From: Giardia intestinalis
Lineage: Eukaryota
Strand: one strand, 5' to 3'
Length of the DNA stretch: 64,000 nucleotides
Assembly (NCBI GenBank): GCA_000002435.2
Contig: CM018791.1
Part shown: positions 1-46,172 of the stretch, one piece after another
How positions within the stretch are numbered: position 1 is the first letter of the stretch
How the letters are laid out: each line of letters starts with the position of its first letter
Program-made: the position numbers and the translations under genes
The notes under the pieces: generated by a model
What the model was told of the DNA's origin: nothing
Databases searched by the model: none
The model's input: the letters and a program-made list of their open reading frames with translations, nothing else

Positions 1-290
1 AGGCTCTGTGATTTATAGTAAGGCATAACAGCAAAATAGCCAGCCCACTGCTTTTCGAAAAATGTATCCAAATAGGGCACGAGATACTTATTCCTGAGGC
101 TGCGGGCCATGAGAAGTTCCGCTTGAAAGGCTCGAGCCAACTCCTCTGTGGGTAAAGGAAGAACAAACTTCTTGACAACCACGGGCCCCGCTTCCTCCTG
201 CGTACTATCCACTGCAAGCATGATGACAGAACAGCGAGACCGCGCAATTTGCCCGAGAATCTCATAGCGATTGGAAAGGACGGGGTGCAT
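1..290 (-). CDS. Protein kinase (Nek-like), 5' part only. The ATG is at 290..288 and the gene runs off the window's left edge.
   Basis: Translating the minus strand by hand gives MHPVLSNRYEILGQIARSRCSVIMLAVDSTQEEAGPVVVKKF...ELLMARSLRNKYLVPYLDTF..., which matches kinase subdomains I-V (VAIK-like VVVKKF, C-helix E, HPN-like region). The upstream sequence is AT-rich (TTAAATTTTAAAAACAAATG). It was missing from the ORF track because it is truncated. Confidence 0.5.
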   Translation of the reverse strand, partial: MHPVLSNRYEILGQIARSRCSVIMLAVDSTQEEAGPVVVKKFVLPLPTEELARAFQAELLMARSLRNKYLVPYLDTFFEKQWAGYFAVMPYYKSQS

Positions 291-312: not shown

Positions 313-1782
313 CTATTTATCCAACCAACGTTTATAATGGCGTACCCCGTCGCACCCAACACGGTCCAGATACCACTCCCCACAAGAAAAATGCTCTCTA
401 TCACCCGTTATGTATTCATCCGTCTCTGGCTTTACCTGTTGGCGAAACCTGTCTTGAAGAAATTCTTGCACGAGCGGATCCTGGGATAGTCTGTGCATCA
501 GCAAGCGCTTGTTAGATTGTAACGACAGCCGAAGCATACCTTCTGATGGAGGGGCTGCAACGCGTTTGATTTTGAGGACACACGGCATCTGGTTGGGGTA
601 CACAGAGAACTTGAAAGCCAGAGATCCCATTCCTGATCCATATCCTGATGCATATATTAGATACTCGTCTTTGAGAGGCGTACGATAGTGTGTAGGGGAA
701 GCAGTTGCAACCTGACTGGCGGCAATGGCTTCTATGTGCTCCAGGATAGAGACGAGGGCCAAGAAAATGCTCCCCGTATATATGTTGCCTGTTTGACTCG
801 AAAGTTTGAGAGACGGCACACACCTCCGTTCACAGTCCTCTGATATAGAAGGATCGGCAAGACAGTTCTTACTGAGCACACTGAGCACGTTGCTATCTCT
901 TGATTGTATTGCTGCAAAGAGTTCATCTTCCTTATCAGACTCCAGATGCAGCGCGTGATAGAGCAGTGCGTGCATTTTCTTTGGAAGGGTGCAATATGGA
1001 GTATGAAAACATGCGAAGTCTGCGTCTAGAAAGAGTCTACGCTGCTGCTCATTACTCATTGCTGCTAGTAAATTGGCACGTAAGTAACACTCAATAGACG
1101 TTGCCCCGTGGACTACTGGAACTGGCGAGGCTATATGTGGCTTATAGAAGTCTGTGGTGTTTTCCCAATAACTATTGAATGATGCATCACACACTATACC
1201 ACTAGGATAATCCTTTACCAACAGCAGAGCGACAGCACCAGCCCCACCTGTAGGAATTGAAGCAATATCATTGTAAATTGAGATATCCGTTGTGACAACA
1301 ATTGCAGCCGGGTACTTGTTTGTTTCGTCGTCATACTTAGCTGCGGATAGCCATAAAGCAGCGTTTTCCAGAGCTAGGACACCGCCTAGACAAGCATTGA
1401 TTATATCGGCGCCTGTGGTTCTAACGGCACCCAGCATGTCCGCAAGGACCGACTTAATAGATTTAGCCTTGTCAACAGATGACTCGGTACCCACCTCAAG
1501 TCTACCTATAGTGACCTTTGAAAGAATATCTTGAGTAGCCTTATCATCAATCAAAAGTTGCAACGAATTCAGAGCTAAGGATACAGAGTCTTCGGAGTCG
1601 ACAGTAACTGCCATCTGATGCTGCCCAAGGCCTTTAGTTATCTTCTCTAAGGGAATCTTGCAAAGAGAAGAAACCTCCTCCTGAGACACTACTATTGGTG
1701 GGATGTACACGGCTATTGCAGCTATTCTTACTTCAGCCGGCGGTTGCAAAGGTGCATGTTCCACATGTGTATCCCTTGACAT
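313..1782 (-). CDS. Hydroxymethylglutaryl-CoA synthase (mevalonate pathway).
   Basis: Motifs IGRLEVGTESSVDKAKSIKS, NACLGGVLAL and GNIYTGSIFLAL match the HMG-CoA synthase catalytic-region signatures. The track ORF begins at a TTG (1824); the first ATG is at 1782 (MSRDTHVEH...). Confidence 0.8.
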   Translation of the reverse strand: MSRDTHVEHAPLQPPAEVRIAAIAVYIPPIVVSQEEVSSLCKIPLEKITKGLGQHQMAVTVDSEDSVSLALNSLQLLIDDKATQDILSKVTIGRLEVGTESSVDKAKSIKSVLADMLGAVRTTGADIINACLGGVLALENAALWLSAAKYDDETNKYPAAIVVTTDISIYNDIASIPTGGAGAVALLLVKDYPSGIVCDASFNSYWENTTDFYKPHIASPVPVVHGATSIECYLRANLLAAMSNEQQRRLFLDADFACFHTPYCTLPKKMHALLYHALHLESDKEDELFAAIQSRDSNVLSVLSKNCLADPSISEDCERRCVPSLKLSSQTGNIYTGSIFLALVSILEHIEAIAASQVATASPTHYRTPLKDEYLIYASGYGSGMGSLAFKFSVYPNQMPCVLKIKRVAAPPSEGMLRLSLQSNKRLLMHRLSQDPLVQEFLQDRFRQQVKPETDEYITGDREHFSCGEWYLDRVGCDGVRHYKRWLDK

Positions 1783-1870
1783 GACCTTGCTCCAAAAGCA
1801 ACAATTATTTACCCTACCGCGCAAACTTTAAGTGTGCGCACATTAATTGCTATTGCTCATCAGAGCTGTG

Positions 1871-5235: not shown

Positions 5236-5331
5236 TCTAATCCATATTCACTTCTATCTGTGTAAATGAGCTTTGCAACATGCACACTTTGATGCGACTT
5301 CGTGGCAACAGCAGAGGCGTGGCGCGTATCT

Positions 5332-6057
5332 TCAAGGATAGTCACCCGACTCGAGCGTGGTCACGCCTTCGTGAGCTATTTGTCGGGCACGGACCATGTC
5401 TACGCTCTCCGGCTGAGACGTCATGACAAGGAGCATGTCGGGATATTTGCGGACACAACTAAAGAGATCCTTGCAGGTATCTTCGTCCGCTATAACGGCG
5501 AAGTGAAGAGAGGTGTTTCCATTGATGCAGTAACGTGACAAATCTCTATGTAGATCGTCCAGGAGCTTATGCATACAGTACCCCAAATCAGTATACTTCC
5601 CTGATCGCTGGAGCCTAAGGTCCCGAGATGGTACCCAAACAGCGATGGCTAACTTCGCAGCGGATGGCTCTAGGCAACGGTAGAGATATGCGAGGACCAC
5701 TTCAAATGCTGTAGAGACCGTGGATAAAGCTCGCAGCGCCCTACAAAGCTCTGGTTTGTTCAATGCATGCTTGAAATCAGAAATCTTTCCTTCTTTTCCC
5801 TGGCAGCAATTGCAGCTTTTGTAAACGCCTATGGCATCATCAGTTATGCTTGCACTGTAGAAAACATCGCTCCGGCAGGAGATGCACTTAGCCAATTCAG
5901 GAACCATAGAAAGCATAAGCGGAGAGAAGGTGTACATAAGGTCGATGACGGTTTCTGCCTCTACAGTCTCTCCAACATAGACAGAGAGGTGCCAGGGCTC
6001 AGTGATCTTCCTGAGAAAAGCGTCGGAAGCCACCTCAGGTGCGTTGTCCCCCGACAT
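5332..6057 (-). CDS. Hypothetical Cys-containing protein (CISCRSD...KSCNCC), lying immediately downstream of the CenH3-like gene on the same strand.
   Basis: 241-aa ORF. The ATG is at 6057 (the track start 6060 is a TTG). No recognisable domain. Confidence 0.35.
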   Translation of the reverse strand: MSGDNAPEVASDAFLRKITEPWHLSVYVGETVEAETVIDLMYTFSPLMLSMVPELAKCISCRSDVFYSASITDDAIGVYKSCNCCQGKEGKISDFKHALNKPELCRALRALSTVSTAFEVVLAYLYRCLEPSAAKLAIAVWVPSRDLRLQRSGKYTDLGYCMHKLLDDLHRDLSRYCINGNTSLHFAVIADEDTCKDLFSCVRKYPDMLLVMTSQPESVDMVRARQIAHEGVTTLESGDYP

Positions 6058-6108
6058 CAATCGTTCAAATTTACAGGTCGAGTCAAAAGGTGGCAGAGGG
6101 GTGAGCAG

Positions 6109-6588
6109 CTACAGCATACTTCCATGAATGCCGTTCATCCATGGAGGACGCACTATTCTCATGTATATCTGTATATCTTTATCCATGATCGTGACGCGGT
6201 GGGCGTGGTTTGCCAGTATTTGGCAGTCTCCAAGCACCTGGGAAAGCATGGCTTCGGATGCTTCCTGCAATGCGCCGATTGCCTGGGCTTGGAAGCGAAT
6301 TTCGTTTCCTCCTGAGGGAAGTGAACACGTTATGTCACGTACAAGGCGTTGAAAGCAGGCGATGGGGATGACGCTAGTGACTCTGCGCTGCATGTTAGTG
6401 ATCTCTTTGCGAACCTGGGAGCCGGGTCGGGCACGTCTGGTGACGGCCTTTTCAGATTTCGATATAGCCTTGCGTGCGACGGTCTTCTTGGAAAGAATCG
6501 TCTTTCGAGGTGCATGTTGTCCTTTGCGTGCTGTATTGACGTGCACGCTCTTGCTGCGGTCCATAGCTGTGTTTTTGGTGCGAGCCAT
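6109..6588 (-). CDS. Divergent histone H3 variant, probably the centromeric histone CenH3.
   Basis: MARTK N-terminus. The histone fold [10 protein letters not shown]...[12 protein letters not shown]...[49 protein letters not shown] aligns with canonical H3 (RPGTVALREI...LPFQRLVREI...[49 protein letters not shown]). It has a longer, divergent N-tail and a 3-aa insertion in loop 1 ([12 protein letters not shown]), both CenH3 hallmarks. ATG at 6588. Confidence 0.7.
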   Translation of the reverse strand: [159 protein letters not shown]

Positions 6589-16581: not shown

Positions 16582-18489
16582 CTACGCCTTGCCCCTGCAG
16601 ATGAACCACCAGCAGAGGAACCCTACAAGGCCAGCCACGACAACCACCACAGCAACGGAGATCCCCGCTATGGCGCCAGTGGAGAGGCCGCTCTTGTTCG
16701 TGCTTCCGCCATTGTTATCGTTATCGCCGTTGTTAGTGCCGTCTGTCTTAACATAGCAGGTAACAGGAGTCGGCGCATTAGGAGACGAAGGAGCTTTACA
16801 GCTCACGCAATTAGGTACGCCTTGGATGTTACCACTTGTTTCAGAACACTTTTTACACTCTTTTCCAGTGTCAAGATAGTATCCAGAATAGCACTCAGTA
16901 CACGTCTTCACACCGCTATCGCCGCTGCACTTTGAGCAGTTGGCTGGACACGGAGGACACGCGCCTGTTTGAGGATCTGCATTCTGTCCATTGGCGCAGT
17001 TTGCACACTTTCCATTGGCCCCTGCGGCTATGCACAAAGTGTTACCTGGGAATGCCCCGGTTTTATAGCATCCGCCAGATTCTAAGAAGTATGCGCCCGT
17101 GCAACTAGTGCAGACTCCTTCTCCGGCCACACACTCCGCGGCTGCGCGGGCTGTTGTAGAGACGCACATGTCGTTTATCGGAACGAACCCTGTCTTGCAC
17201 CTGCTGCAATACTTGGAGCCCCCAACGACGGCCGTGCACTGACCAGCTTCGCAGTTCTCTGCGTACCTTCCCGTGCACTCCTGGATGCATTTGCCAGTAG
17301 TCGGATCGCCATCATGCTCAAGTACAGACCCGGGGTAGCAGGCTGTACAGGAGGCTTCTGCGTTGTCACTACAGTTTGCACATGACTCGTGGCAGCGGGT
17401 GCACACCTTGCTATTGGCATATGTGCCAGCAGGACAATCGAGCATGCACTCGTCCTTCAGGGGGCTCAGATTATTATTAGTACACTCAGAGCACGTAACT
17501 ATTGGACCTGCTCTTGCAGATGTTGCTTTGAGGGAGCACTTCTTGCAGTTGGCTATGCCACCCTTATCGGCTTCACTACACAGAGCACATACCTTCCTGT
17601 TACTATTCTGTGCATCGGTCATGGGGAAGAATCCATCCTTACACTCCTCTGCACTGGCACAAGAGGCTGTCCCCGATTCTGTCTTCAGATACTTATCTGC
17701 CTGGCACTCAGTGCACGTTGCAGGGCCGGCACTCTGTGGCTTAGTGCACTTGGCACATCCAGCGACGCCCTTCCAAGCACCAGATCCCTGAGTAGCATCT
17801 CCGCACGATATGCAAGGGCCCTCGCTCCCCTCTGTTGCTAAGAAGTACGTCTCTGCCGTGCACGACTTGCACTTGCTGACTGTCCCGTCGGTGCAGGTCA
17901 GGCAGTTATCTGCACATGCTGTACATGTCTTTCCTTTACTATTATCTACAAAGTATCCGCTCTCGCATGCTGTGCACGTGGCAGCCTTGGGAGTAGTAGT
18001 ATCACTTGCTTCTGTGGGCTCCTCACACTGAGTGCAATGCAATACGCCCTTGTACTTTTTATCGTTCTTAACTGTTATTTCCTCTTCGTCTCCACATGGT
18101 ATGACCGACTGGTGAGAGGCGTCTGCGCCCGGCGGCACGAAGTACCCAGCCTTAGCCTGCGTGCACACTCCATCAGTTGCTGTTTCACACATCGTGTTGC
18201 CAGGTGCCTGGCTATCCTTGTAGCATCCGCCCTTGTACATGAAGGACTTATTAGCGCACTGTGTACATACTCCATCTTGTTTTTGGCTACATTCGTTGTT
18301 GTCTGCTGAGCACACTCCGTCCGTTGGGGCAGATTGAGACCCACCGCCGTTGCACTGGGAGCAGTACTTCTTGCCGTTGATGACGGCGCTACAGGCCTTG
18401 CAAGTGTCGGGCTGATCACCAGAGACGGTTGTGCACTCCTCTGTCGCCAGTTGGAGCGCAAGGCCGATCAGCAAAAACGCGTAGAACAT
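16582..18489 (-). CDS. vsp: Variant-specific surface protein (VSP).
   Basis: Signal peptide MFYAFLLIGLALQLATEEC. Dozens of CXXC motifs and two GGCY motifs. C-terminal TM helix plus the invariant ...FLCWWFICRGKA* tail. The true ATG is at 18489 (the track ORF extends to an upstream TTG at 18717). The stop is followed by the conserved VSP 3' motif. Confidence 0.9.
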   Translation of the reverse strand: MFYAFLLIGLALQLATEECTTVSGDQPDTCKACSAVINGKKYCSQCNGGGSQSAPTDGVCSADNNECSQKQDGVCTQCANKSFMYKGGCYKDSQAPGNTMCETATDGVCTQAKAGYFVPPGADASHQSVIPCGDEEEITVKNDKKYKGVLHCTQCEEPTEASDTTTPKAATCTACESGYFVDNSKGKTCTACADNCLTCTDGTVSKCKSCTAETYFLATEGSEGPCISCGDATQGSGAWKGVAGCAKCTKPQSAGPATCTECQADKYLKTESGTASCASAEECKDGFFPMTDAQNSNRKVCALCSEADKGGIANCKKCSLKATSARAGPIVTCSECTNNNLSPLKDECMLDCPAGTYANSKVCTRCHESCANCSDNAEASCTACYPGSVLEHDGDPTTGKCIQECTGRYAENCEAGQCTAVVGGSKYCSRCKTGFVPINDMCVSTTARAAAECVAGEGVCTSCTGAYFLESGGCYKTGAFPGNTLCIAAGANGKCANCANGQNADPQTGACPPCPANCSKCSGDSGVKTCTECYSGYYLDTGKECKKCSETSGNIQGVPNCVSCKAPSSPNAPTPVTCYVKTDGTNNGDNDNNGGSTNKSGLSTGAIAGISVAVVVVVAGLVGFLCWWFICRGKA

Positions 18490-19149
18490 TGTGGCTCGAC
18501 GCTCTGTCACACAGAGATATAGCAGCTCCGTTCGCCAGTCCACCCCTTCATGGCATCTGCCTGTGCTGCATGACGCACTGGCAGGGAAGGCCCTCCACAG
18601 GCCTGCGGAGAAGCGGAGTCGTATCGATTCCACTCTTATGACCTGCCGCTCCGAGCTTCTGTGACTGGCCGGCTGTGAGATGGATTGATCAGTATAGGTC
18701 TCCCCCTTATGCTGCAAGGCGTACCATAGTAGTGGCTACACGGCGGCCATGCTTCGCTCTTCGCTGTGATGTGAGGGCTTCCATTGGCGTCAGCGACAGG
18801 CGGAGCTGGCTCGTCCTATCCCAGTCCTGTAGTGTCACGTAATCCCTAATCCGTCGGAACTTTCGGCACCATACGGCATATGGCTGCCCAGCCACAGAAA
18901 GGGTCGTCTTAGCGGTAGGCCGTAGGTAGGATGCACAGGAGCAGGCCTACACTCGCCCCAGAATCTATGTGCTAGCTTCGGTGGCCTCGCACTCTGCACA
19001 CCAGGCCGCTCCCGTCTAAGCGCGGCCAAAGTGAAAGCTGGGTCGAGAGGGGTCTATTCGCTGACCGCTGGACCGCGCCATCCGGTGGGCCCAGTAGTAC
19101 AACACACCGTGACAAAGTGAATCCAGCCCACCGGACCATTTAAAAAACT

Positions 19150-20898
19150 ATGAGTGGTACATACAGCCTGGAGGATATGGCGGGGTACCATTCGATCTAT
19201 GATGATGTTACTCTCCCACCAATCACCCTCACATACTTGCCCACTGGTCAGCAAATCACAACTAAGTCTGAAATACCTGTGGGCCAGGCATTGAAGGTGT
19301 TTGATCCCGAAATCAACGCCATAGCCGCTCTCGTTAACAATGAGATCTTAAGCCTCAATGAAAAGTTGGACATAAGCAGCACAATAGAGCCTATATTCTT
19401 CAAAGGCGAGTATGCGCGCCAGATCTTTTGTGACTCTTTCACGGTGGCACTGCAGGCTGCTGCAACTAAGCTCTTTCGCGGGCAGGCTCTTGAATGTTGC
19501 TACATCATGCAGAATGCTAGGTTTTTCAAGTTCACCGACATGGCCCTTACTCGTGACGATCTAGACGCTCTAAAGGCTTTATTGATCGACATCTCAGACG
19601 CTGACCTCAAAATCTCGCGTACTACTGTTTCGTTTAACGACGCACTTCACTACCTAAAGGAAATTCATCATAAGGGCTCTTGTAACCTGCTTACGTCTAT
19701 CAACACGTCAAAGGTTTCTATGGCAAGAATATACTCCAAAGAGCTTAGTATTGATTTCAGAACCCTCTGGATTTCTACGCTCGCACCTTCTACCGGCGTC
19801 TTAGGAAAGAATCTATGGACGATGAAGCTTCACGATGCAGGGATACTTGTTCATCTCACCGATGACTTTGTCAATGTTAAGCCTCCCAATGCTAAGCTTG
19901 AGAGCCAACTTGCTCCAATCATGATGGCCTATAAAAACTGGTCATCTGTCCTTCGGGTGCCGAATGTAGCGGCTTTGAATGAACTAATTCCTAACAGGAC
20001 AAGAATTCGTGAGTTCATCAACACGTGCGAGTTCAGACACGAGAAGCACATTTCTGAAGTAGCTAAATCTATCCCAGATGATGTCCGCTGCATCTTTGTA
20101 GCTGGCCCCAGCTCGTCATCTAAAACCACGTTCAGCAACAGGCTCTCTGTGCATCTCCGTACTCGCAACTTCCAGCCCATCCGCGTCAGCCTAGATGACT
20201 ATTATATGAATCCGGATAATATCCCCCGTCTAGAGAACGACCCAACAAAGCCAGATTTTGAACATATAGAAGCGCTGGATCTTAAGAGGCTGAGCGAAAA
20301 CCTTCACGGATTACTTAATGGAGAAGAGGTGACCATGGCCCATTATGACTTCAGGACGAAGACTGCAGGAGACGGCAAGAAGCTGAAGCTTCCGTCGGGC
20401 GGGGTCCTCATAATTGAGGGCATCCACGCTCTGAATGACCGCATAACCTCTGCTGTTCCTGCTGATAAGAGGTGTAGAATCTTTATACAGCCAGTGGGAA
20501 ACTTGATCTGGGACGAGCTGCGTCTGTTTGAAAGCGTGGATACACGCCTACTTCGCAGAATGTGTCGTGACTTTGTTTTCAGGAACCGCAGCGCAGATGG
20601 CACATTGGACTTTTGGCCAAGCGTCAGAGCTGGCGAAGAACGCTGGATATTGTCGAACCAGAGTAAGTGTGAGATATACTTCAACTCTTCAGTGCTGTAC
20701 GAGCTCTTCACGCTCAAGGTCTTTGCAATTCCACTTCTCAAGTCAGTGCCACAATCTAGCCGCAACTTCCCATCGGCCCGTCGTCTCCTGCGCCTTCTGG
20801 AGCCATTTCTCCCCATACCCGTTGAGCTAACTCCAGAGATTTCCCTTAGTCGCGAGTTTCTTCCATCTGGAAGCATCTTCGAAGACTTCTTCTTCTAG
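19150..20898 (+). CDS. Uridine kinase/phosphoribulokinase-family P-loop kinase with a ~300-aa N-terminal extension (fused architecture).
   Basis: C-terminal half: Walker A IFVAGPSSSSKTTFSNRL, then VLIIEGIHAL and a PRK/UK-type fold. N-terminal domain unassigned. ATG at 19150 after CATTTAAAAAACTATG. Confidence 0.55.
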   Translation: MSGTYSLEDMAGYHSIYDDVTLPPITLTYLPTGQQITTKSEIPVGQALKVFDPEINAIAALVNNEILSLNEKLDISSTIEPIFFKGEYARQIFCDSFTVALQAAATKLFRGQALECCYIMQNARFFKFTDMALTRDDLDALKALLIDISDADLKISRTTVSFNDALHYLKEIHHKGSCNLLTSINTSKVSMARIYSKELSIDFRTLWISTLAPSTGVLGKNLWTMKLHDAGILVHLTDDFVNVKPPNAKLESQLAPIMMAYKNWSSVLRVPNVAALNELIPNRTRIREFINTCEFRHEKHISEVAKSIPDDVRCIFVAGPSSSSKTTFSNRLSVHLRTRNFQPIRVSLDDYYMNPDNIPRLENDPTKPDFEHIEALDLKRLSENLHGLLNGEEVTMAHYDFRTKTAGDGKKLKLPSGGVLIIEGIHALNDRITSAVPADKRCRIFIQPVGNLIWDELRLFESVDTRLLRRMCRDFVFRNRSADGTLDFWPSVRAGEERWILSNQSKCEIYFNSSVLYELFTLKVFAIPLLKSVPQSSRNFPSARRLLRLLEPFLPIPVELTPEISLSREFLPSGSIFEDFFF

Positions 20899-20979: not shown

Positions 20980-23898
20980 ATGACGCGGTTAGCGACTCTC
21001 ATGTCTCGGTATCAGCTTCTAAGCAAGCTGGGCAAAGGATCCAGGAGCACGATATACCTGGCTCAAGACAATGAAACAGGCAATTATTTGGCATGTAAAG
21101 AACTTTGTTATCGCGACTGGGATTCGTCGGAACTGAGCCTTCTAGAACATGAGATAATGGTAAATAGGGCGCTAGTTCATCCTAACATTATGCGGTATCA
21201 ATATATTCTTAACGATAAGGAGAACTGTCGCTATTACCTCTTGATGAGTTACTTTTCTAAATCAGATTTGGGGTACCAGCTCGTCAAGCGTAAGGAAACA
21301 CATGCACGATTCAAGGAGGCAACCATATGGACTCTCATGGCGCAGTTGTATGATGTGCTTCTTTATTTGCACTCTGTTGATAAGCGCCACAGTACTGATA
21401 TCTCCATTGCTCTATTAAGGGATTTCAGACCATCCAATTTCTTTCTGTCTAGTCGCGGTATTATTCAAATTAAATCTTTGCAGCACCTCAAGCTTCTCGA
21501 ATTTGGCTCTGTAGAGGCCGAGCCGTTTGCAAGCAAGCTTCCTCCACTGCTCGTACCATATTTGGCACCCGATGTTTTGCAAGGAAACTATTACAGCGCA
21601 TCATCTGATATCTGGTCTCTAGGATGCCTTCTCTATGAGTTGTGTACATTTCAGGCCTTTGTTACAGGGCGTACACCCAACGATGTCCTCCAGGCGCTAG
21701 CAGGCGCTAGACACCCCATTGTTTTGGACCATTATTCACAAAGCTTATCACACGTTCTCAGCCTTATGCTCCAGCCCAATTCCCGAGATCGCATTACCCT
21801 GAAGCAGTTGGGGTCGTTTCCACAGCTAAAGTCGGCCTGGGAGCAATATAAGGCATACATCACCCACACAAGGAAACCTGTGGGTGATCCTATACCCTTA
21901 CTGTTCCATTGCAAGTGCGGTGGGGATGGCCATAGTTGCTGCCTGGATGCTCGCCGCAAGAATGGCCTTCCAGATACATATATTTCGCGGAGAGACCTCC
22001 AGAGTGATGCAGTGACTCCGGCTAACCTCTGGCAACAAAGCACCTCTTCTCGCTTACTAGCTTCCAAGCGCCACAAGTCTAACGGCGAATTCGAGGTTGT
22101 CCACGTGAATCAGCGTGCAGAAGACGAGGATGGAATTAAATATGAACGCTTGGAATCAGATGCTCTTGCGCTGGAAGATAGATTGGGTTACACACCGAAT
22201 GCAACGGGTGTTGTATTTACACAACCGGCCATACAGGCAATCGATCTGAACAGTACACGCCAATCTCCATCGAATACCACCAAGGAGTCATACTTTGCAA
22301 CTCATGGGCGCTACCCCAAAGGGGTTGTGAACCGCCTAGTCTATAGCAATGAAAATAGCCGTATGGAGGGCGGCGGGGCGCTGCAAACTCAATTTGAATT
22401 GGTAGAAAAAGTCATTGAAGACTCTCCTTCTATTAGAAATCCGTCCAGCGCGAAATATATAGAATATGGCAATTTTGCAGGCCGCACTATGCTCAACACA
22501 ACCATCGGTGGTCAAGGAAACATGACAATGATGGGAGGAGTTCTTGGCCCTGTGAATGTAGATGAGATTTTCAAGGGCGAGGAGGTTGAGACACAGGATA
22601 GGGCATGCAGTCCGATTATCGTTAGTGTGCATTCTCCCAACTACACTAGAACAGAGCTTGACAGCCTGATGACAAACGATGGTGTCACACGCCATACTAG
22701 AAAGCATAGAAACGAGTTCGGTGATACAATCAGCACCTGCTGGCAGCCTTCTCTAAAGAGCAATATTTCTTCTGTAAGGACTCTTGACTTGGATGAAAAG
22801 GTTGCTTCAATTAACATGCCTTCGACACCAAATCACCGTCTAAGGGACAGTAGCTATGATATTTATCCCACATTAAATTCTAGCGGAGGTATGGCAGAAT
22901 CTCTATATGCCAATTCTCTTTCTCCGCCGAAGAAAAACAAAACCTCTATCAATGATAGCCATGACTCTAAGATCACTAGCCATATTTTCTCGCCGTCCTA
23001 CAAGGCATCCTTTTATGATCCAAAAATGCTATCCACACCGAAGGCTTTCGAGGCATTTAGCTCTGATGAAGAAGGACAGCATAGTGATGTGCCGCAAGAG
23101 GTAATTAACTACCGTCGAAGCCCCCCTGCATCCTTATATGAAGAGCCTTTACGCTTGGATTACCACAGGCACCCAGTACAGGTGCCTATTGTTTATACTA
23201 CTGATGATACGGTTTCATACATTGATATTCTTAAAAGCACACAATCCACAACCAGAGCAGTTGGTCCTAATAAACCGGAAAAGCTGAAGAAACAGAAGAA
23301 GTCCAAAGAACCTACCCAGCCCCCTGTAATATCATTTGAGGACGATTGCTCTGTTGGTAGACTACCTACGCCTGATAGGACAATGATAAAGGTAAGCCAC
23401 CGGGATTCTATCAGAGAGCCAGGAAACGATGATCATCTTATTTCTGCGTATTCTCGATGGTCGTCGCCTTCAATTACTCCACAACCTCCTGCAGCACCCT
23501 GCACATATGAACATTATCATGCATCGTATGTCCCACGTAATAAGCTAACGCCGCCGAAGACAATACAGGTTCCGCTCCCAGGCGACTACACTCACTATGC
23601 CTTTTCATCAAATAAGATTGAAAAATCATCAGCATTAGCCAAAGACATACATGGTGCGCATGAGCCTACGTCTACCAACAATCTAGCACTGTCCAGGAAC
23701 AGCATTGCACATGTTTATGAGACGCATTTTCTGCCCCATGAAAGGTATGTTTCTAAGCATGAGTTACAAAGAACACACCCTGTCACGTTTTCTATGTTAA
23801 ACACTACCACTAACGGGACAAGAAGCGGAGCAGAGGGGTTGAGAAATACGCTATCCACTGACAGAGGTGTTGGAAGCTCAAGTCAAGTCACTTTGTAA
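20980..23898 (+). CDS. Nek-like protein kinase-fold protein with degenerate catalytic motifs (pseudokinase) and a long low-complexity C-terminal region.
   Basis: Kinase-like N-terminus (YQLLSKLGKGSRSTIYLAQD, ACKELCY, HPNIMRY, IWSLGCLLYELC). HRD is replaced by HSVDKRH, DFG by EFG and APE by APD. A Cys motif HCKCGGDGHSCC follows the domain. ATG at 20980. Confidence 0.6.
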   Translation: MTRLATLMSRYQLLSKLGKGSRSTIYLAQDNETGNYLACKELCYRDWDSSELSLLEHEIMVNRALVHPNIMRYQYILNDKENCRYYLLMSYFSKSDLGYQLVKRKETHARFKEATIWTLMAQLYDVLLYLHSVDKRHSTDISIALLRDFRPSNFFLSSRGIIQIKSLQHLKLLEFGSVEAEPFASKLPPLLVPYLAPDVLQGNYYSASSDIWSLGCLLYELCTFQAFVTGRTPNDVLQALAGARHPIVLDHYSQSLSHVLSLMLQPNSRDRITLKQLGSFPQLKSAWEQYKAYITHTRKPVGDPIPLLFHCKCGGDGHSCCLDARRKNGLPDTYISRRDLQSDAVTPANLWQQSTSSRLLASKRHKSNGEFEVVHVNQRAEDEDGIKYERLESDALALEDRLGYTPNATGVVFTQPAIQAIDLNSTRQSPSNTTKESYFATHGRYPKGVVNRLVYSNENSRMEGGGALQTQFELVEKVIEDSPSIRNPSSAKYIEYGNFAGRTMLNTTIGGQGNMTMMGGVLGPVNVDEIFKGEEVETQDRACSPIIVSVHSPNYTRTELDSLMTNDGVTRHTRKHRNEFGDTISTCWQPSLKSNISSVRTLDLDEKVASINMPSTPNHRLRDSSYDIYPTLNSSGGMAESLYANSLSPPKKNKTSINDSHDSKITSHIFSPSYKASFYDPKMLSTPKAFEAFSSDEEGQHSDVPQEVINYRRSPPASLYEEPLRLDYHRHPVQVPIVYTTDDTVSYIDILKSTQSTTRAVGPNKPEKLKKQKKSKEPTQPPVISFEDDCSVGRLPTPDRTMIKVSHRDSIREPGNDDHLISAYSRWSSPSITPQPPAAPCTYEHYHASYVPRNKLTPPKTIQVPLPGDYTHYAFSSNKIEKSSALAKDIHGAHEPTSTNNLALSRNSIAHVYETHFLPHERYVSKHELQRTHPVTFSMLNTTTNGTRSGAEGLRNTLSTDRGVGSSSQVTL

Positions 23899-23954
23899 GC
23901 CACACCATATGTCAATAAGTGAATGGCTGCTTGGAAATCATTTCTGTTATAAAA

Positions 23955-26075
23955 ATGGCAAATCAGATTCTGGCCGGTGTCCTTCAATTAGAGCAGGTCC
24001 TGGCCACCGGAGAACACAGTGTCATATATCAGTGCGCTGACTTACGGACTGGGAGTACATACGCATGTAAGAAGATCTGTTATTCACGATTTGATCAGCT
24101 TAAAGAAGACGCTCTTAACCACGAACTTGCTGTCGTGCATAGAGCTAATCATGGAAATGTGGTTGCATACTTAGATGTTATACATGATAAACCATGCCAA
24201 ACATATTACATTATTATGCCTTTTTACAGATTTTACGATCTAGGAACGCAAATTTGTAAGAAAATTGAAGAGGGCGGTCGTTTTGAAGAGGCATGCGTTT
24301 GGCTAATATTAGTGCAGTGTCTTCTTGCTCTAGACTACCTTGACACGGAGCTCTCTGACGTCGACGCAGATGCACGTCCCACAAATAAGCTTGTCTTCGG
24401 AAACATTCGGCCCACCAGTATCTATGTTGATTTGCAAGGGAATACGTACATAAATACATTTAGATTGTCAAAGTATCCTTCGCTTTTGAATGGCACTGCA
24501 GCTCCCAAGTTAGCACCATACTGGGCTCCAGAGCAGCTCATGAACTATTCACATAGTAGTAAGATAGAGATTTGGTCGCTAGGTTGCATAGTTTACGAAA
24601 TGTGTCTCTTGCACAGTTTGTTCAGAGGCACATGCGAAGACGTATTAGAGCAAATACAGAAGCTAAGGCGACCTGTCAAGCTGCCTAATTACTCAGCACA
24701 GTTGGAGGAGGTAGTTAACAGCCTTCTAGAGCCGTCTCCAGACAAACGTCTCTCTGCAGCAGAGCTCCTCAAGCATCCGACAATCTTGGAGTACAAGCGC
24801 TTTTATGATGAGCAGATAGTTTCTAGGAAGCTTGCCTTAGGGCACCAGCTTCCACGGATGGGTCTTTGCAAAATCTGCGGCGGGAATGGATTAGATTGTT
24901 GCGAAATAGTTCGACTTGCAGTTGCCAACAGCAAAAGGCTATCTTATATAGATGAGCATGGGAATCTTGTTTACGTAGATACTCTTGCAGAGCAAAAGGC
25001 AGGGATCGCCCGTGTAGCCAATCAGCGAACTATGGACCGCATTTATTCTGTGATTAATCCAGATTCTCGGAAGGCAAATTACTTCAATATTCAGCCAGTG
25101 ACGAAGGATATGATTCGAGCTAAGCAACAAGCCAGCTATGCATGGAAATCTGCACAAGATGAAGGTAGAACTAAAGGTGAAAACGCCCACTCTATTGTAA
25201 TGAATTCAATAAAAGATGGATACAAGTACAACGAGCAGCGCAACTATTTCCCCAAAGAAAGATATCGAGACCCAAACACATATCCGCTTACTAATCTAGT
25301 TCCAGTAACGCTGATCCAATCTGCAGAGCATAAGCAAGGAACGAGATTGCAGTTAGCTTCTAGACAACGGAACGAGCTGGATCAATGGAGCTATGAGGGA
25401 CTAGACACAATAAACTTCAAGACGCAATACTCAGAGCAGCCGTCATGGGCATACTCCGGCAACACAGATATGAAGGATGTACCCAGTATCGTCTCTAATG
25501 CAGAGGAGCGAGCAGTTAGGCAAGATAATAATGATGCACCTTCTTATAAAGTAGGGCATAGTAGCGGCTTTTCCAGCACTATCGGCAATTCGTCTTTTAT
25601 CGACGAGCTTCTCTTCCAGGTAAGGTCCGTATCTCCACCTAAGCCGGTCTGTAAGGACTTCGTTCCGCTAGTGTATGCGAATTCTTCGACGCCTCCTCCC
25701 AGCTATCAGTCGATGAACAGTGTCCCAGTAACAAAGGTAACTACAGAGTACGAGCTCTTCCAACCGTCTATTCATACACTACTAAATCCGTCAGTGAACC
25801 ATGCCAGTCCAGCAGACACATCGGTACAGAGCGTAGCGCCTGTGAACATTTCGGGGCCCAGCGCCCACAGAGATGGGCCACAAGCGTTGCAGGCATCAGG
25901 ACTAGAGCCTAAGTCGTCTCTACTCGTGTCCAGCGCTGTACCATCTAAGGCATCCACAATCTACAAGAAGGAACCGCTCTCCACTTCAGTCACTTCAGTA
26001 TACAAAGACTCTGCGCTCTATGTCTCATCTGTTAACCCAGCTAGCGAGTATATGCCAGAACAAAAGCAAAAGTAG
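23955..26075 (+). CDS. Nek-like pseudokinase, tandem paralogue of 20980..23898.
   Basis: Same layout and shared motifs (ACKKICY, HGNVVAY, IWSLGCIVYEMC, CKICGGNGLDCC). HRD/DFG are lacking. The track start 23919 is a GTG; the first ATG is at 23955 (ATAAAAATG). Confidence 0.6.
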   Translation: MANQILAGVLQLEQVLATGEHSVIYQCADLRTGSTYACKKICYSRFDQLKEDALNHELAVVHRANHGNVVAYLDVIHDKPCQTYYIIMPFYRFYDLGTQICKKIEEGGRFEEACVWLILVQCLLALDYLDTELSDVDADARPTNKLVFGNIRPTSIYVDLQGNTYINTFRLSKYPSLLNGTAAPKLAPYWAPEQLMNYSHSSKIEIWSLGCIVYEMCLLHSLFRGTCEDVLEQIQKLRRPVKLPNYSAQLEEVVNSLLEPSPDKRLSAAELLKHPTILEYKRFYDEQIVSRKLALGHQLPRMGLCKICGGNGLDCCEIVRLAVANSKRLSYIDEHGNLVYVDTLAEQKAGIARVANQRTMDRIYSVINPDSRKANYFNIQPVTKDMIRAKQQASYAWKSAQDEGRTKGENAHSIVMNSIKDGYKYNEQRNYFPKERYRDPNTYPLTNLVPVTLIQSAEHKQGTRLQLASRQRNELDQWSYEGLDTINFKTQYSEQPSWAYSGNTDMKDVPSIVSNAEERAVRQDNNDAPSYKVGHSSGFSSTIGNSSFIDELLFQVRSVSPPKPVCKDFVPLVYANSSTPPPSYQSMNSVPVTKVTTEYELFQPSIHTLLNPSVNHASPADTSVQSVAPVNISGPSAHRDGPQALQASGLEPKSSLLVSSAVPSKASTIYKKEPLSTSVTSVYKDSALYVSSVNPASEYMPEQKQK

Positions 26076-41045: not shown

Positions 41046-44000
41046 ATGAAGCGAGACAAGCTTCTTTTAAATGGCAAGTATAGCATCAATGTTAAAACTA
41101 ACGGGGAGCGGACGTACAAAGCGCTATGTAATATTGATGGCATAGTACCTGCAATAAAGATTTACCGGCTTTCGGACGTCTCGAAGAGCTCAGTCGACTT
41201 TGACCAAAAGGAGATAGACACTGCTGCACGGAGCCTCCTACAACCAAACTTAGTTAAATATATCGAAGCATTTGCGGACAAGGAGTATTTCTACGTTGTT
41301 ATGGAATTTGTGCCTAACAGCTTAGACCAGATTATTGCTCACCAGCGAAGTACAGAACATCTTGCTGCGCTCTATGTGACCCAGATTGTCAAGGGCTTAA
41401 TTTTCATTCACTATAACGGCTATACTCATAAGCGAATCACACCAGAACATATATTAATCACAAATGACGGATTTGTCAAAATTAGTGACTTTGTCCTCCA
41501 AAACGCATACTTTGCAGATGGTGACAAGGATGTTCGTGACATGGCACCAGAGGAAATACTGCTTCTAGGCAGGACAACGGCCGTTGACATCTGGAACCTT
41601 GGACTCCTCCTGTTCAACTGTCTAGCACGGGAACACTTTTTCAAGAATATGGCAGATCAAGAAATAATAAGATTGTTCCAGTCTACTAATGCACAGAACA
41701 CGATCAATGAGCTTGTCACTTTTCGCCTTGCCGAATGCAATTTAAACGTGTCCCAAGCGTGCAAAGAATTCATACTTGCTTGCTTATCCATAGATTACAC
41801 CTTCAGACCATCTGCACAGAGCCTTCTGCAGGCTTCATTCTTAAAGCAAACTAACACTGAGATTGTGTGTGGGAAAACAGGTGCGTCTACGTTGAATCAA
41901 AACCAAATAGATGAGATACAAGCTCTTAATGACGTGAGTGCAGGACTAACAACGTTGACAAGCCAGATTCCAGACAAAGGACACGCAGCCACTAACATCC
42001 AATCCACACTGAATCATGTAGTCACTAAATCAGCAAAGCAATTAACCACTATACCTCCCCCTACTCCTCCATATTCTAATTTTTCGCGGGCTCAAGAGAC
42101 TGAGGGGGACTCGAAGACGATTAGCAGTGGCTTTAATAAACAAGACCAAGAGATTCTTCGTCGTGCCATCCTAAATATCCCATCTGCTTCAGAAGAGTGT
42201 AGAAATTCCTATGCCATCTCTGCAGGAGACGCCGCCACACTTGCAGCTATGCGAAGTCCTGAAAAGGCCATCAATACGTTTACCTGCATTCCTGCAACTG
42301 CAAACTTCCCCATGCCTGATGATGCTCCGAATAATAAGCAAAAGTTAAGAGCAAAAAGCATCGAGGCAGGAGCTAAGCAAGGGAAGAAGCTGAAACACCG
42401 TGTGGAAAATAAGCTGGAGTGTGTAGACAATCAGCTGGACGATTCATCATTTGATCTTCAGGACGTGAAGATCATAGGAAAATTAGAAGTCAAAAGATAT
42501 GAGGACAGCACCACCGGCGACAACTTTAGTGACGTGATTGAAAATGATCCCGCTGTCGATAAAGGGCACCACCTGGGAGGTTCTGTTGCTGATCATATTC
42601 AGAGCAAACCCCGCCTCATTCAAACAAATTCAGCAGTATCTTCATCTAACTTAAACCCACAAAAGAAAAATCAGACAAAAACTCAACGAACAGCATCAAA
42701 GCCGGCAAGAAACCATGCGCTCAGTGCAGGGGATGACTTAATTTATGATGCAGCGGCAGCAGATAAGCATTCTGAGAAAATACATCCTAAAACTCGGAAG
42801 ACGCAGCGCGCCATGTCTACCGTAACAACTAGAGCAATAGCAAAGCAGCCGACATACCAGAATGCATATTCGCGAAATGCAGGAGCAGCCGCCGGTACTG
42901 CTCGACAAGATCCCTGTTACACCACCCTTGCCACTGGATGGGCAAAGAGAGAGATGAATACCAAATCCAAGAGGAACTTCCCTGAGCAGAGTTTGTTGAC
43001 CACTACAAAGGATCCCGTGTTCCCCATAGCTCAGACAGCTCTCAAAAGAACTACCTGTCCGCTATCACTAGATACACTAGACGATCACTGGAACTCTAAC
43101 TCCTATTCTTCCGACGACAACATTTTGAAAAATAGTTCGCTTAAGCACACAAATTGCCCCTATCGAGCTCCAGATGGGAACAACTCCTGTTCAGAAATAA
43201 GTTGTACCGACATGGTTAATCCTCTTTCTTCGAAGTCTCACCATAAGTCCATCTTTGGTGACGAACGTTCAAAGGATCATTCAGATAAGCTCATAGCTAG
43301 CTTAAGTATTGAGAATAATGCACAAGGACCTGAAAATCTGGATATGTTTGTAGATAAATCCCAGAAATCTGGCACTAAAAAGGTTTCACTAACTCGGTCG
43401 GATTTTCCTAAGGACTCTCTTCATACCGCACCTATTTCTCCAGAGTCCCCTCAAGAAATAAAGACCTATGTGGACAATGATATTAATGAAGCGTACACTT
43501 TCTCCACTGTGTCTGCAGAACCCGTCCAGCCATTTGTCTTGCACTTTGGAGGCTCTCCAGCTGCTACATCTAGATTATGTACTGTGACTAATCTCGACAA
43601 AAGGTCCTCGAGGCAGGAGAATTGCCAAAACGATGACCCTTCTATCAACCTTGATACCATTGCACTTCCACAGGATCAGGATATTATGTCATTGATGCAT
43701 AAGCGCCAGCTTATGTTGCAGCAGATGGATCCTCACATGGACGATACTAGCAGCGCATTTAGTAGTGGAACTAGCATGGCAAATTTAGAGAAGAAGGCTG
43801 CTGTCATAGAATCTGGCAAAGACACGCCTAAATCTGGTGCAGCATCGCCGTCCCGTCTAGTGTATCAGCAAAAGAATTCCTCAGCCGACAATATCGCCAA
43901 TAATCATCTCGGTTTGGCTAAGGATGTACTTGCAAATCAGCAGAAGCGTCAGTGCACGGACCCCTCCAGCCTATCTGCTAGCACTGATATGCTTACCCAG

Positions 44001-46172
44001 AAATCGCACAATGGCTTCTACGAAGAAAACTCTGCACTGAACAGGTTTGAAGAGAAGATGACGGACACCAGCTCCACATATGATGAGTACGACGACTATG
44101 AAGGGCTGGAAAACCATGAGGCCGCGCTCTTCATCATGACAACCGACAAGACAGATGTGGAAGAGCTACGTGAGATCCTGACAAACTACAAGATCAACAA
44201 TAAGATATCTGTCTCTTCAGTTGAACAGGTTAGAAAGTTGATTTGTTCTTCTAAGCGGTGCTTGGCGTACGTCAGGGACAACTTTTCCGTTAACTTTTGG
44301 TTTGTCAAGTTTAAGCAGTTAGTGGACACGGGAAAGGAGGAAGCCATTTTGGTCCTTATCCTCATCTCCACTATTGCCAGGCTTGACTTTCCATTCTGTA
44401 GAGATATCTTTTTGATGGGCCTCATTCCACTTGCTAATAGATTGTACAGTACGTATAGCACAATCAATGAGTTCCTAGATAGATGGATACTCCCGCTTTT
44501 AGTGAAGCTTATCTCAGAATATGAAGAGGACAGTGCTATTCTTCAACAGCGCGCTAATCACAAAACTGACATGCCAACTGACATGGCTCCTTTAACTGGC
44601 AAGCAGCAAACCTGTGGCTCACAGCCTTCTGAAGTAAAAAGTAAAGAAGCAGGGAGAAGGAGCACAACCACCAAAGGAAACAGCTATGCTGTGATGCGGA
44701 TTTTTGAATCCATGATCGTCACCCACACTATGTCGTTCATTTTACGATTTTTATTTTCTCCTATTCAGACTGGACACCAGAGCAAGAATTCTTTCATTCC
44801 TACTTCTACAGCATGTGACTCTCTCTCGCTAATAATGGGCAAAATATCTGACCCTTCACATAAGGCCATCGAGCCGCATGAGCTTGCATACAATATTCTT
44901 CTCATTCTGTTTCAGAGCAAAACCATTTTCAAGTCGGAAATCCTCTGTGAGATAACTAGTCCGGACTCTCCTTTATTACATACCTTGATGGAGCACGTTG
45001 ACAAGTCCATTGTGTATGTTTTTCTGCTACAAGACCTTCTATTCATAGAAGCAATGCGAGAGACCGTCTTAGCGCTTCTTCCGAGACTATTTAAGAAGCT
45101 CCAAAAGATGATGGATGCATATGAACTCATGTACACCGCCGCTTCACATGACGAGGATGACTACGATCTATCTGCATCCTTGCATATTGACTTCTCGACC
45201 TTTGCTGCTGGGATACGTACGCATAACACCAATGTTGCCAACATCATAGCTATCGGGTCTATCACAACATTAGAACCCGATAGCCTGCGCTACAATCTTA
45301 CCATTCTGTTGACCGCGATCACCAACTTGCTAATTAGTCTTAGCAAGCTTGTAGCCGAGCCCTACTTTTCAGAACCTTTTAAGGATCACATAGACGTATT
45401 TGTTCAGGTCCTTAGCAAGAGTTCAGACTATGGAAATGCTGTTCCTTATGCCCTTTCATCTTTGCACTCGCTTTTCCGGCTCAATCTGGACTATATCGTC
45501 AACTTTCCAAGAATAAAGCACATCATGACCAACATAGGAACAATCCTCAACTGTAAAGAAGCAGCAAATATATATTCACTTCAGTTTGCAATACCATTGG
45601 CATTAACAATCACTAGAACAATCAACCCAAATAAATTCGCAGACAAGGAAATTAAGCATGTTTTAATAAAGGAGATCAAGGAAAACTTCTTGCTAGCATT
45701 TCTAGACTTGATTGAGAATAGCTCCGTGTGGAGAAAGCAGTGCCTAGATGCCCTGGCCCACATTTTATCCTACACAAATGAACTAGAGTCCACAATATGC
45801 CGCGATTTCAGACTCTCGTTAAGCAGTTCTGATTATAAGGAGACCCTTCCTTCAATCCTGACCTCCCTTCTATCGCTAAGCGAGAATAGCTCCACGATTC
45901 GCTCTTACCTGGCTAATCATAAAGAACTCGCAGCAGGGGTCACCTATGTACTCAAGCATACTTCTAAGGATAACGTGAACTCCAAGGTTGTTGCACTCAA
46001 GCTCTGCCTAAAGTTCAGCTTAAATTGCAAGGAGTACTTCGTAAATACCTACAAGAGCGTTCTCTCCATGCTGCCACAGTTCTGCGACATGAACACAGAT
46101 CAGTTCGTTATCGGAGCCAGCATCAGTAAGCAGATTCTGGATGCTCTAAAGCTAAACAGCAGTAACAATTAG
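41046..46172 (+). CDS. Large kinase-fold protein (1,708 aa): an N-terminal degenerate Nek-like kinase domain plus a ~1,400-aa C-terminal region with helical-repeat (ARM/HEAT-like) character.
   Basis: Kinase subdomains are recognisable (PAIKIYRL, YVVMEFVPN, HKRITPEHILI, KISDFV, MAPEE, DIWNLGLLLFN). The catalytic HRD Asp is replaced (HKR) and DFG becomes DFV. ATG at 41046 after AAAAAAGTAAATG. Confidence 0.65.
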   Translation: MKRDKLLLNGKYSINVKTNGERTYKALCNIDGIVPAIKIYRLSDVSKSSVDFDQKEIDTAARSLLQPNLVKYIEAFADKEYFYVVMEFVPNSLDQIIAHQRSTEHLAALYVTQIVKGLIFIHYNGYTHKRITPEHILITNDGFVKISDFVLQNAYFADGDKDVRDMAPEEILLLGRTTAVDIWNLGLLLFNCLAREHFFKNMADQEIIRLFQSTNAQNTINELVTFRLAECNLNVSQACKEFILACLSIDYTFRPSAQSLLQASFLKQTNTEIVCGKTGASTLNQNQIDEIQALNDVSAGLTTLTSQIPDKGHAATNIQSTLNHVVTKSAKQLTTIPPPTPPYSNFSRAQETEGDSKTISSGFNKQDQEILRRAILNIPSASEECRNSYAISAGDAATLAAMRSPEKAINTFTCIPATANFPMPDDAPNNKQKLRAKSIEAGAKQGKKLKHRVENKLECVDNQLDDSSFDLQDVKIIGKLEVKRYEDSTTGDNFSDVIENDPAVDKGHHLGGSVADHIQSKPRLIQTNSAVSSSNLNPQKKNQTKTQRTASKPARNHALSAGDDLIYDAAAADKHSEKIHPKTRKTQRAMSTVTTRAIAKQPTYQNAYSRNAGAAAGTARQDPCYTTLATGWAKREMNTKSKRNFPEQSLLTTTKDPVFPIAQTALKRTTCPLSLDTLDDHWNSNSYSSDDNILKNSSLKHTNCPYRAPDGNNSCSEISCTDMVNPLSSKSHHKSIFGDERSKDHSDKLIASLSIENNAQGPENLDMFVDKSQKSGTKKVSLTRSDFPKDSLHTAPISPESPQEIKTYVDNDINEAYTFSTVSAEPVQPFVLHFGGSPAATSRLCTVTNLDKRSSRQENCQNDDPSINLDTIALPQDQDIMSLMHKRQLMLQQMDPHMDDTSSAFSSGTSMANLEKKAAVIESGKDTPKSGAASPSRLVYQQKNSSADNIANNHLGLAKDVLANQQKRQCTDPSSLSASTDMLTQKSHNGFYEENSALNRFEEKMTDTSSTYDEYDDYEGLENHEAALFIMTTDKTDVEELREILTNYKINNKISVSSVEQVRKLICSSKRCLAYVRDNFSVNFWFVKFKQLVDTGKEEAILVLILISTIARLDFPFCRDIFLMGLIPLANRLYSTYSTINEFLDRWILPLLVKLISEYEEDSAILQQRANHKTDMPTDMAPLTGKQQTCGSQPSEVKSKEAGRRSTTTKGNSYAVMRIFESMIVTHTMSFILRFLFSPIQTGHQSKNSFIPTSTACDSLSLIMGKISDPSHKAIEPHELAYNILLILFQSKTIFKSEILCEITSPDSPLLHTLMEHVDKSIVYVFLLQDLLFIEAMRETVLALLPRLFKKLQKMMDAYELMYTAASHDEDDYDLSASLHIDFSTFAAGIRTHNTNVANIIAIGSITTLEPDSLRYNLTILLTAITNLLISLSKLVAEPYFSEPFKDHIDVFVQVLSKSSDYGNAVPYALSSLHSLFRLNLDYIVNFPRIKHIMTNIGTILNCKEAANIYSLQFAIPLALTITRTINPNKFADKEIKHVLIKEIKENFLLAFLDLIENSSVWRKQCLDALAHILSYTNELESTICRDFRLSLSSSDYKETLPSILTSLLSLSENSSTIRSYLANHKELAAGVTYVLKHTSKDNVNSKVVALKLCLKFSLNCKEYFVNTYKSVLSMLPQFCDMNTDQFVIGASISKQILDALKLNSSNN

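Follow-up and report, generated by a model that had tools for sequence, protein, structure and literature searches.

Two adjacent genes of Giardia intestinalis WB, located in a 64,000-nt stretch of contig CM018791.1 (assembly GCA_000002435.2; hereafter the window), encode degenerate Nek kinase domains followed immediately by a cluster of four cysteines, and raise the question of whether this cluster is a retained feature and, if so, what it might do. Gene A, GL50803_8218 (XP_001704182, A8BYJ3; GK203), occupies positions 20980..23898 on the plus strand and encodes 972 amino acids (aa), and gene B, GL50803_16251 (XP_001704183, A8BYJ7; GK198), occupies positions 23955..26075 on the same strand and encodes 706 aa. 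Both open reading frames (ORFs) match exactly database entries named "Kinase, NEK". The intergenic spacer from the stop codon of A to the ATG of B (23899..23954) is 56 bp long, in agreement with the initial annotation of the locus; the ORF of B is open from 23919, and its 706 residues are counted from the ATG at 23955. The genes themselves, their assignment to the Nek family, and their catalytically dead status were already known. The shared four-cysteine (Cys4) motif and the subfamily link described below were not found in the searched literature, and neither a post-kinase Cys motif nor such a link is present in the text and supplements of the Giardia kinome catalogue of Manning et al. (2011), to the extent of the portions covered here, to which all statements on this catalogue refer.

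The motif reads CKCGGDGHSCC in A (aa 311-321; 21910..21942, plus strand) and CKICGGNGLDCC in B (aa 305-316; 24867..24902, plus strand), the first eight residues of the latter, CKICGGNG, fitting the pattern CxxCxGxG. The two proteins are 31% identical over 317 aa (BLASTP, E = 1e-46), and this alignment extends as far as HCK-CGGDGHSCC / LCKICGGNGLDCC and no further. The sequence blocks initially reported as common to both proteins (ACK[EK][IL]CY, H.N[IV][MV].Y, and IWSLGC..YE[LM]C) were all found in A and B, and so was the conserved Cys motif claimed to lie right behind both kinase domains, at the point where the paralogy ends. In the six-frame translation of the window, the strict motif has only two occurrences, namely these two sites. 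When each protein was shuffled 200,000 times, the generic four-Cys pattern arose with a frequency of at most 6e-4 anywhere in the protein and of at most 7e-5 inside the 60 aa past the kinase domain. The sole further match to the generic pattern in the window, CCCHEVASKCACC at 5275-5313 on the minus strand, is located outside ORFs of at least 250 aa and probably belongs to a non-coding frame.

The conservation of the motif was assessed by comparison with assemblages B (GS) and E (P15), whose syntenic loci were fetched via the uridine kinase gene located 5' of A (19150..20898, plus strand; identified as an ORF and by database match); the order of uridine kinase and Nek genes is kept in GS, P15, and Giardia muris. 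The four cysteines and the GGDG of A are unchanged in assemblages A, B, and E, and the entire 12-residue motif of B is unchanged in these three assemblages and 100% identical in one further lineage. Synonymous sites are saturated between WB and GS (proportion of synonymous differences, pS, ~0.7), and the ratio of nonsynonymous to synonymous substitution rates (dN/dS) does not exceed 0.12 in any region. In B, the motif together with the next 84 residues (aa 305-400) constitutes the best-conserved part of the protein, with ~90% WB-GS identity vs. 76% for the kinase domain. For aa 311-340 of A the identity is 87% vs. 83% for the kinase domain, with 89% for aa 322-340 (LDARRKNGLPDTYISR..).

The same selective constraint extends over the C-terminal tails, which at dN/dS <= 0.12 are under strong purifying selection and are not throw-away sequence. 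The tail of A (aa 322-972; 21943..23895, plus strand) contains no Pfam family. In B, a post-motif segment with 88% WB-GS identity (aa 317-400; 24903..25154, plus strand) precedes an S/P-rich distal tail with a dN/dS of ~0.12 (aa 401-706; 25155..26072, plus strand). These tails had been described as long, unrelated, and S/T-rich. They are indeed unrelated, as no significant similarity was detected between the tail of A and that of B (best E = 0.38), but their enrichment in Ser and Thr is moderate (~19-20% vs. 10-14% in the kinase domains). The tails and all motif carriers were scanned against Pfam with E-values up to 10, and no zinc-finger or other domain was identified over the motif or the tails.

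The motif also occurs beyond this gene pair. A profile built from A and B was used to search 1.84 billion cluster representatives, and the best 150 matches were scanned for the motif; these matches and the first ~400 aa of the Manning-table sequences covered contain at least six carrier genes in WB. Besides A and B, these are GL50803_5553, GL50803_5554, GL50803_13963, and GL50803_12148, so that the family-wide search suggested by the initial annotation adds four WB Neks to the original two. All variants are described by the general formula C-x(1,2)-C-x6-C-x(0,2)-C, in which the spacer between the second and third cysteines always comprises six residues, and the formula is placed 15-45 residues past the kinase domain. 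The motif reads CSCGGNGKVCC in 5553, CSCGGDGNKCC in its orthologue P0124, CACGGNMDDCC in P0152 of the 5554 lineage (G. lamblia P15, EFO64382), CVCGKPVGNCC in P0140 of the 13963 lineage, and CPACNGTGCDCQQCGGTG in 12148. At the motif position of P0073, from the 12148 lineage, two CxxC knuckles are found, each fitting CxxCxGxG (CPACNGTGSDCQQCGGTG). A pair of CxxC knuckles is also present in P0074 (CQRCSGISPHCDVCNGRG), whose kinase domain is 51% identical to that of P0073, and the double-CxxC form is thus maintained at ~50% kinase identity. In five orthologues of 5554 the motif is invariant. An x-G-x-G turn follows the second cysteine in A, B, 5553, and each half of the 12148 motif.

In an unguided MAFFT alignment of 11 sequences that are otherwise 24-32% identical, the four cysteines constitute 4 of the 16 invariant columns, and the cysteines of A and B are aligned by column with the double CxxCxGxG. 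The Cys cluster is a retained feature, as proposed initially, because it is invariant across assemblages, recurs in paralogues, and accounts for one-quarter of the invariant columns. The string CGG[DNT] was found in no other kinase among the Manning-table sequences covered (first ~400 aa). A search with the subfamily alignment retrieved the 5554 lineage only, and searches with aa 1-344 of A and with the P0073/P0074 alignment returned generic kinases only, the queries' own clusters being absent from the results as well.

The carriers are also grouped by their kinase domains. With the motif excluded, these domains are reciprocal best BLAST matches, and in a neighbor-joining tree of 152 kinase domains all carriers fall inside one clade of 16 leaves. 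The carrier clade obtained 61% bootstrap support (neighbor joining, 86 taxa, Poisson correction), a moderate value, and long-branch attraction among degenerate kinases may contribute to the grouping. Six WB genes combine a motif located 15-45 aa past the kinase domain with grouped kinase domains, the two features by which we propose to define a Cys-knuckle Nek subfamily. On the best reading of the sequences, A, B, 5553, 5554, 13963, and 12148 would constitute a small, Giardia-restricted Nek subfamily, most members of which are catalytically dead. Three of the four additional members (5553, 13963, and 12148) are scored as dead by Manning et al. (2011), and 5554 as "Active (K,D,D present)"; since 5554 keeps the K-D-D triad, the motif extends beyond dead kinases. 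Literature retrieved by gene identifier describes 12148 as an inactive Nek with an Ala gatekeeper. A, B, and the four other carriers lie outside the subfamilies GL1-GL4 and Nek1, all six being classified as "Nek-Unclassified" (Manning et al., 2011). The catalogue treats A and B as genes without close paralogues, whereas here they are linked to four other Neks; in addition, A and B lack post-kinase ankyrin repeats, unlike 67% of Giardia Neks (Manning et al., 2011).

A seventh candidate, the active dragonfly Nek P0198 (Ladona fulva KAG8224235), contains CSCVGDCC ~35 residues past its kinase domain; it was rejected as a carrier, being grouped elsewhere and showing a different spacing, and the resemblance was judged coincidental.

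Five of the six WB carriers are organized in two tandem arrays. The second array consists of 5553, 5554, 13963, and 13964, three of which possess the Cys motif, 13964 being the array neighbor without it. The first 96 codons of 5553, the WB orthologue of P0124 (tblastn, 71% identity), are located at 3..290 on the minus strand of the window, next to the HMG-CoA synthase gene (313-1824, minus strand), and the gene runs off the left end of the window. Since 5553 lies beside HMG-CoA synthase, the second array starts immediately beyond the left edge of the window, at a distance of ~20 kb from A and B. The same arrangement was observed in contig L003 (Logan SRR17450160), where P0124, the 5554 orthologue, P0140, and a motif-less Nek follow one another head to tail downstream of HMG-CoA synthase. 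In assemblage B, the 5554 orthologue and the uridine kinase gene are probably on one contig, of 81,236 bp. The neighboring positions of 5553, 5554, 13963, and 13964 were noted previously, but the genes were called "not specifically related in sequence" (Manning et al., 2011). L003 has a G+C content of 38%, and contig L006 (Logan SRR30592944) one of 51%, values markedly different from the 48% of WB. Both carry clear orthologues of Giardia Neks and probably derive from unsequenced Giardia lineages.

The catalytic status of A and B was examined by an alignment of both proteins with 65 other kinases, by HMMER alignments to Nek1 and Nek2, and by models built with AlphaFold2 (AF2). The kinase domain spans aa 11-277 in A (21010..21810, plus strand) and aa 12-276 in B (23988..24782, plus strand), with Pfam Pkinase scores of 112 and 95 bits, respectively (cut-off 31.7), and AF2 models both domains with a predicted local distance difference test score (pLDDT) above 90. 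With A alone as the query, the top sequence matches in the PDB are human NEK1 (4.8e-27) and then NEK2, and Foldseek with the A model retrieves ordinary kinases, Nek2 among them. With a match to the Pkinase profile and Neks as the closest relatives, both proteins are assigned to the Nek family.

Protein A retains the β-3 lysine K40, the α-C glutamate E58, the catalytic aspartate (LRD148), N153, and a near-normal Gly loop; its DFG position is occupied by SLQ (S166-L167-Q168; nt 21475-21483), and APD is read for APE, which is APE in the assemblage B orthologue. Protein B retains K39 and an intact APE; its HRD position reads FGN150 in WB and P15 and FGD in GS, S155 replaces the catalytic-loop Asn, and TFR (168-170) stands at the DFG position. 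If a pseudokinase is defined by the loss of at least one of the β-3 Lys, the HRD Asp, and the DFG Asp, both A and B qualify on the aligned residues. In Additional file 1 of the catalogue (Manning et al., 2011, Genome Biol 12:R66), A had already been listed as "Dead Nek - missing D184" and B as "Dead Nek - missing D166, D184", with both classified as Other/Nek, "Nek-Unclassified", and as 1:1:1 orthologues in WB, GS, and P15. The description of the pair as Nek-family pseudokinases is therefore correct in substance, agreeing with Pfam, the closest PDB relatives, and the published labels, although it had been published before and some details were inaccurate: the loss of HRD, DFG, and APE integrity in both proteins holds for DFG, but A keeps the HRD Asp and B an intact APE.

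What the retained cluster does was approached by structure prediction and by comparison with known zinc modules. AF2 was run on aa 1-357 of A (multiple sequence alignment of 67 sequences) and aa 1-420 of B (56 sequences). In both models the kinase domain is followed by a post-kinase helix, formed in A by aa 281-296 (21820..21867, plus strand; block pLDDT 97 falling to 75) and confidently predicted in B at aa 275-294. A further helix is predicted to begin at the CC pair in A and B, and in B the model continues, with low confidence, as a β-hairpin and a helix over the post-motif segment. With the 12148-type segment as the query, phmmer produced weak matches in the PDB (E-values of 0.18-6.5), four of the seven (EMB2737, Anti-TRAP, DnaJ, and DNAJA3) being zinc fingers of the DnaJ-like kind; the alignment with Anti-TRAP has the form CPxCNGxG...CxxCxGxG(V/I).

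We favor the reading that the motif forms a structural Zn(Cys)4 knuckle, which would stiffen the junction between pseudokinase and tail and serve as a docking module for a scaffold; judged from the sequences, this reading has about an even chance of being correct. The subfamily would have inherited a four-Cys knuckle behind a helix that packs on the kinase domain, and one Zn(II) would be held by all four thiolates: the first Cys pair would form part of a CxxC-x-G-x-G turn of the DnaJ type, and the following helix would carry the second pair at its N-terminus. Such a knuckle would lock the beginning of the C-terminal tail into a small rigid module. The dead kinase may then act as a scaffold, with the knuckle and the conserved segment that follows it binding a partner or a cellular structure. 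We infer both zinc binding and partner binding, metal binding in particular from the CxxCxGxG signature and the paralogue with a double CxxC. The zinc knuckle is favored because of the strict spacing, the x-G-x-G turn, the position shared with the double CxxC, and the conservation of the adjoining residues.

Among known zinc modules, the motif resembles those of the DnaJ and Anti-TRAP proteins, in which two CxxCxGxG motifs bind one zinc ion via four cysteines. One full CxxCxGxG is present in B and two in 12148, with the x-G-x-G turn in A and 5553. However, CC is all that remains of the second CxxCxGxG in A and B, and the first pair of A is CxC; the spacer of the carriers comprises 6 residues instead of at least 10; and the carriers differ from DnaJ by having one site instead of two and by their post-kinase context. 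The carriers thus share only the turn signature, no statistically significant match to the DnaJ (PF00684) or Anti-TRAP (PF15777) families having been obtained. The Gag knuckle, with the canonical pattern C-x2-C-x4-H-x4-C, resembles the motif in being a very short segment with a Cys-x2-Cys turn and two further ligands where a short helix begins, whereas the carriers have four Cys ligands with another spacing and a fold that is not confidently predicted. The Gag knuckle and the short zinc-binding loops are reportedly fold groups in the 2003 classification of Krishna, Majumdar, and Grishin.

Several observations weigh against the zinc knuckle or against its importance throughout the clade. CC and CxC seldom serve as ligand pairs in a single tetrahedral zinc site. 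The Cys motif itself has a pLDDT of only ~55 in both AF2 models, which show no confident fold or packing for it; phmmer with the motif segment of B gave no match in the PDB; and Pfam recognizes no zinc-finger family on any member, the comparison of P0073 with Anti-TRAP reaching only E = 8.9. No experimental data on A or B were found in the literature searched by gene identifier. Furthermore, the carrier clade includes the motif-less 13964/P0107, P0077, and the G. muris protein P0084 (TNJ30362, 489 aa, with a Q-rich tail). The last is the product of the single Nek gene directly behind uridine kinase in G. muris (locus L007, 10001-11470; CM016925.1), and the Cys motif is not present in it despite the synteny. 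Either G. muris lost the motif or the motif originated in the G. intestinalis lineage; given the motif-less members of the clade, it is dispensable in some lineages. The absence of the motif from orthologues had been named in advance as evidence that would speak against a conserved module, and here the outcome is divided, with the motif missing from the syntenic G. muris homologue and kept in assemblages A, B, and E. Another G. muris protein, P0072 (TNJ28592.1, 2411 aa, annotated as 'Kinase, NEK'), matches the A/B profile in seven separate stretches and apparently contains about seven kinase-like domains.

The main rival to the zinc knuckle is a multi-site S-palmitoylation signal that would tether the dead kinases to the plasma, flagellar, or peripheral-vacuole membrane. 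The four cysteines lie within 11-12 residues of a linker that AF2 leaves unstructured, and basic residues are found past the CC pair in A (LDARRK), 5554 (GYRRYLKK), B (EIVR..NSKR), and 13963 (TLNR). Acylation typically targets CC and CxC pairs, which are atypical as zinc ligands, and the SNAP-25 linker offers a comparable case of an internal four-Cys cluster within ~12 residues of a flexible linker with basic residues nearby. Acylation clusters, however, allow variable spacing, whereas in the carriers the six-residue spacer and the GG.G turn are kept at only 25-30% identity between paralogues, and this strict conservation of spacing and Gly turn sets them apart from SNAP-25-type clusters. At the homologous position, 12148 and P0074 hold the classical double CxxCxGxG signature of a metal site. 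No paper on these genes was found by identifier, palmitoyl-proteome papers lying outside that search. On balance, a palmitoylation signal appears unlikely.

Decidedly improbable, in our view, is a second alternative, by which the cysteines would bind a metal between molecules (a shared zinc, Cu(I), or an Fe-S centre, e.g., in an A-B heterodimer) or form a CxC/CC redox switch with reversible disulfides, sensing oxygen stress in this microaerophilic organism. CxC and CC pairs are found more typically in metal-thiolate clusters and in redox or copper sites of the Hsp33 or Cox17 kind than in single zinc knuckles. The carriers are tandem-encoded, and in the portion of the expression data covered 8218 and 13963 share the serial analysis of gene expression (SAGE) class 'Trophozoites & Encyzoites'. 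The paralogue with two ordinary CxxC pairs points instead to a self-contained Cys4 site.

The Cys module could alternatively regulate catalysis, if A were an atypical active kinase using a register-shifted [DE]FG as its DFG. Its retention of K40, E58, D148, N153, and the Gly loop is compatible with activity, and an EFG does occur, within LLEFG, 8 aa beyond the DFG position (E174; nt 21499-21501). Codon 174 varies among assemblages, giving EFG in WB and GS and DFG in P15, where the site reads KLLDFGS. However, this site lies 21 residues past N153 instead of the canonical 13, the residue is Glu rather than Asp in WB and GS, and both the multiple sequence alignment and the AF2 model, whose strands span 162-164 and 171-173, assign SLQ to the DFG position and place E174 beyond strand β-9. 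Manning et al. (2011) likewise score A as missing D184. The EFG of A was accordingly rejected as a true DFG on the grounds of spacing, alignment, and predicted strands, and an active A with a regulatory Cys module seems quite unlikely.

Finally, a functionless chance or compositional likeness, for which one might cite the absence of the motif from the syntenic G. muris gene and two other clade members and the CSCVGDCC behind an unrelated dragonfly kinase domain, is effectively refuted by the rarity of the pattern in shuffled proteins, the invariance of the cysteines across assemblages despite saturated synonymous sites, and the recurrence of the motif at one position across six gene lineages in the 11-sequence alignment.

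Several other genes of the window were recorded in passing. A variant-specific surface protein (VSP) gene (Pfam PF03302, 285 bits) is located between the two Nek arrays at 16582-18717 on the minus strand, 430 bp 5' of uridine kinase, and a VSP-family ORF is found on the corresponding side in P15 (positions 5313-6176 of locus L002). Three plus-strand genes encode additional proteins of expanded families without the Cys motif, namely an apparently intact Nek with ankyrin repeats (59975-61927; Pkinase, 221 bits), a 1708-aa protein whose N-terminal kinase domain (110 bits) precedes a long tail without any known domain (41046-46172), and a 263-aa ankyrin-only protein resembling Protein 21.1 (52068-52859).

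Giardia encodes 198 Neks, ~3.7% of its proteome, of which ~70% are pseudokinases, and 147 Neks are 'unclassified', without known accessory domain or function. Against this background, a motif that can be written as a regular expression joins six genes, comprising two tandem arrays and one dispersed member (12148), and the resulting subfamily corrects the published note that the chromosomal neighbors are unrelated. The motif provides a concrete experimental handle on these Neks; the general view of Giardia kinases is unchanged, and the finding is of interest mainly for specialists on the Giardia kinome. A broader proposal, which we put forward as possible though on the doubtful side, is that the Cys4 knuckle marks a hitherto unrecognized module of the G. 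intestinalis lineage that makes locally amplified dead Neks into metal- or acylation-dependent scaffolds serving one particular cytoskeletal or membrane structure; in a sharper version, tandem-encoded members such as A and B may pair via the motif. If true, this would be the first functional handle on the large ankyrin-less 'Nek-Unclassified' group.

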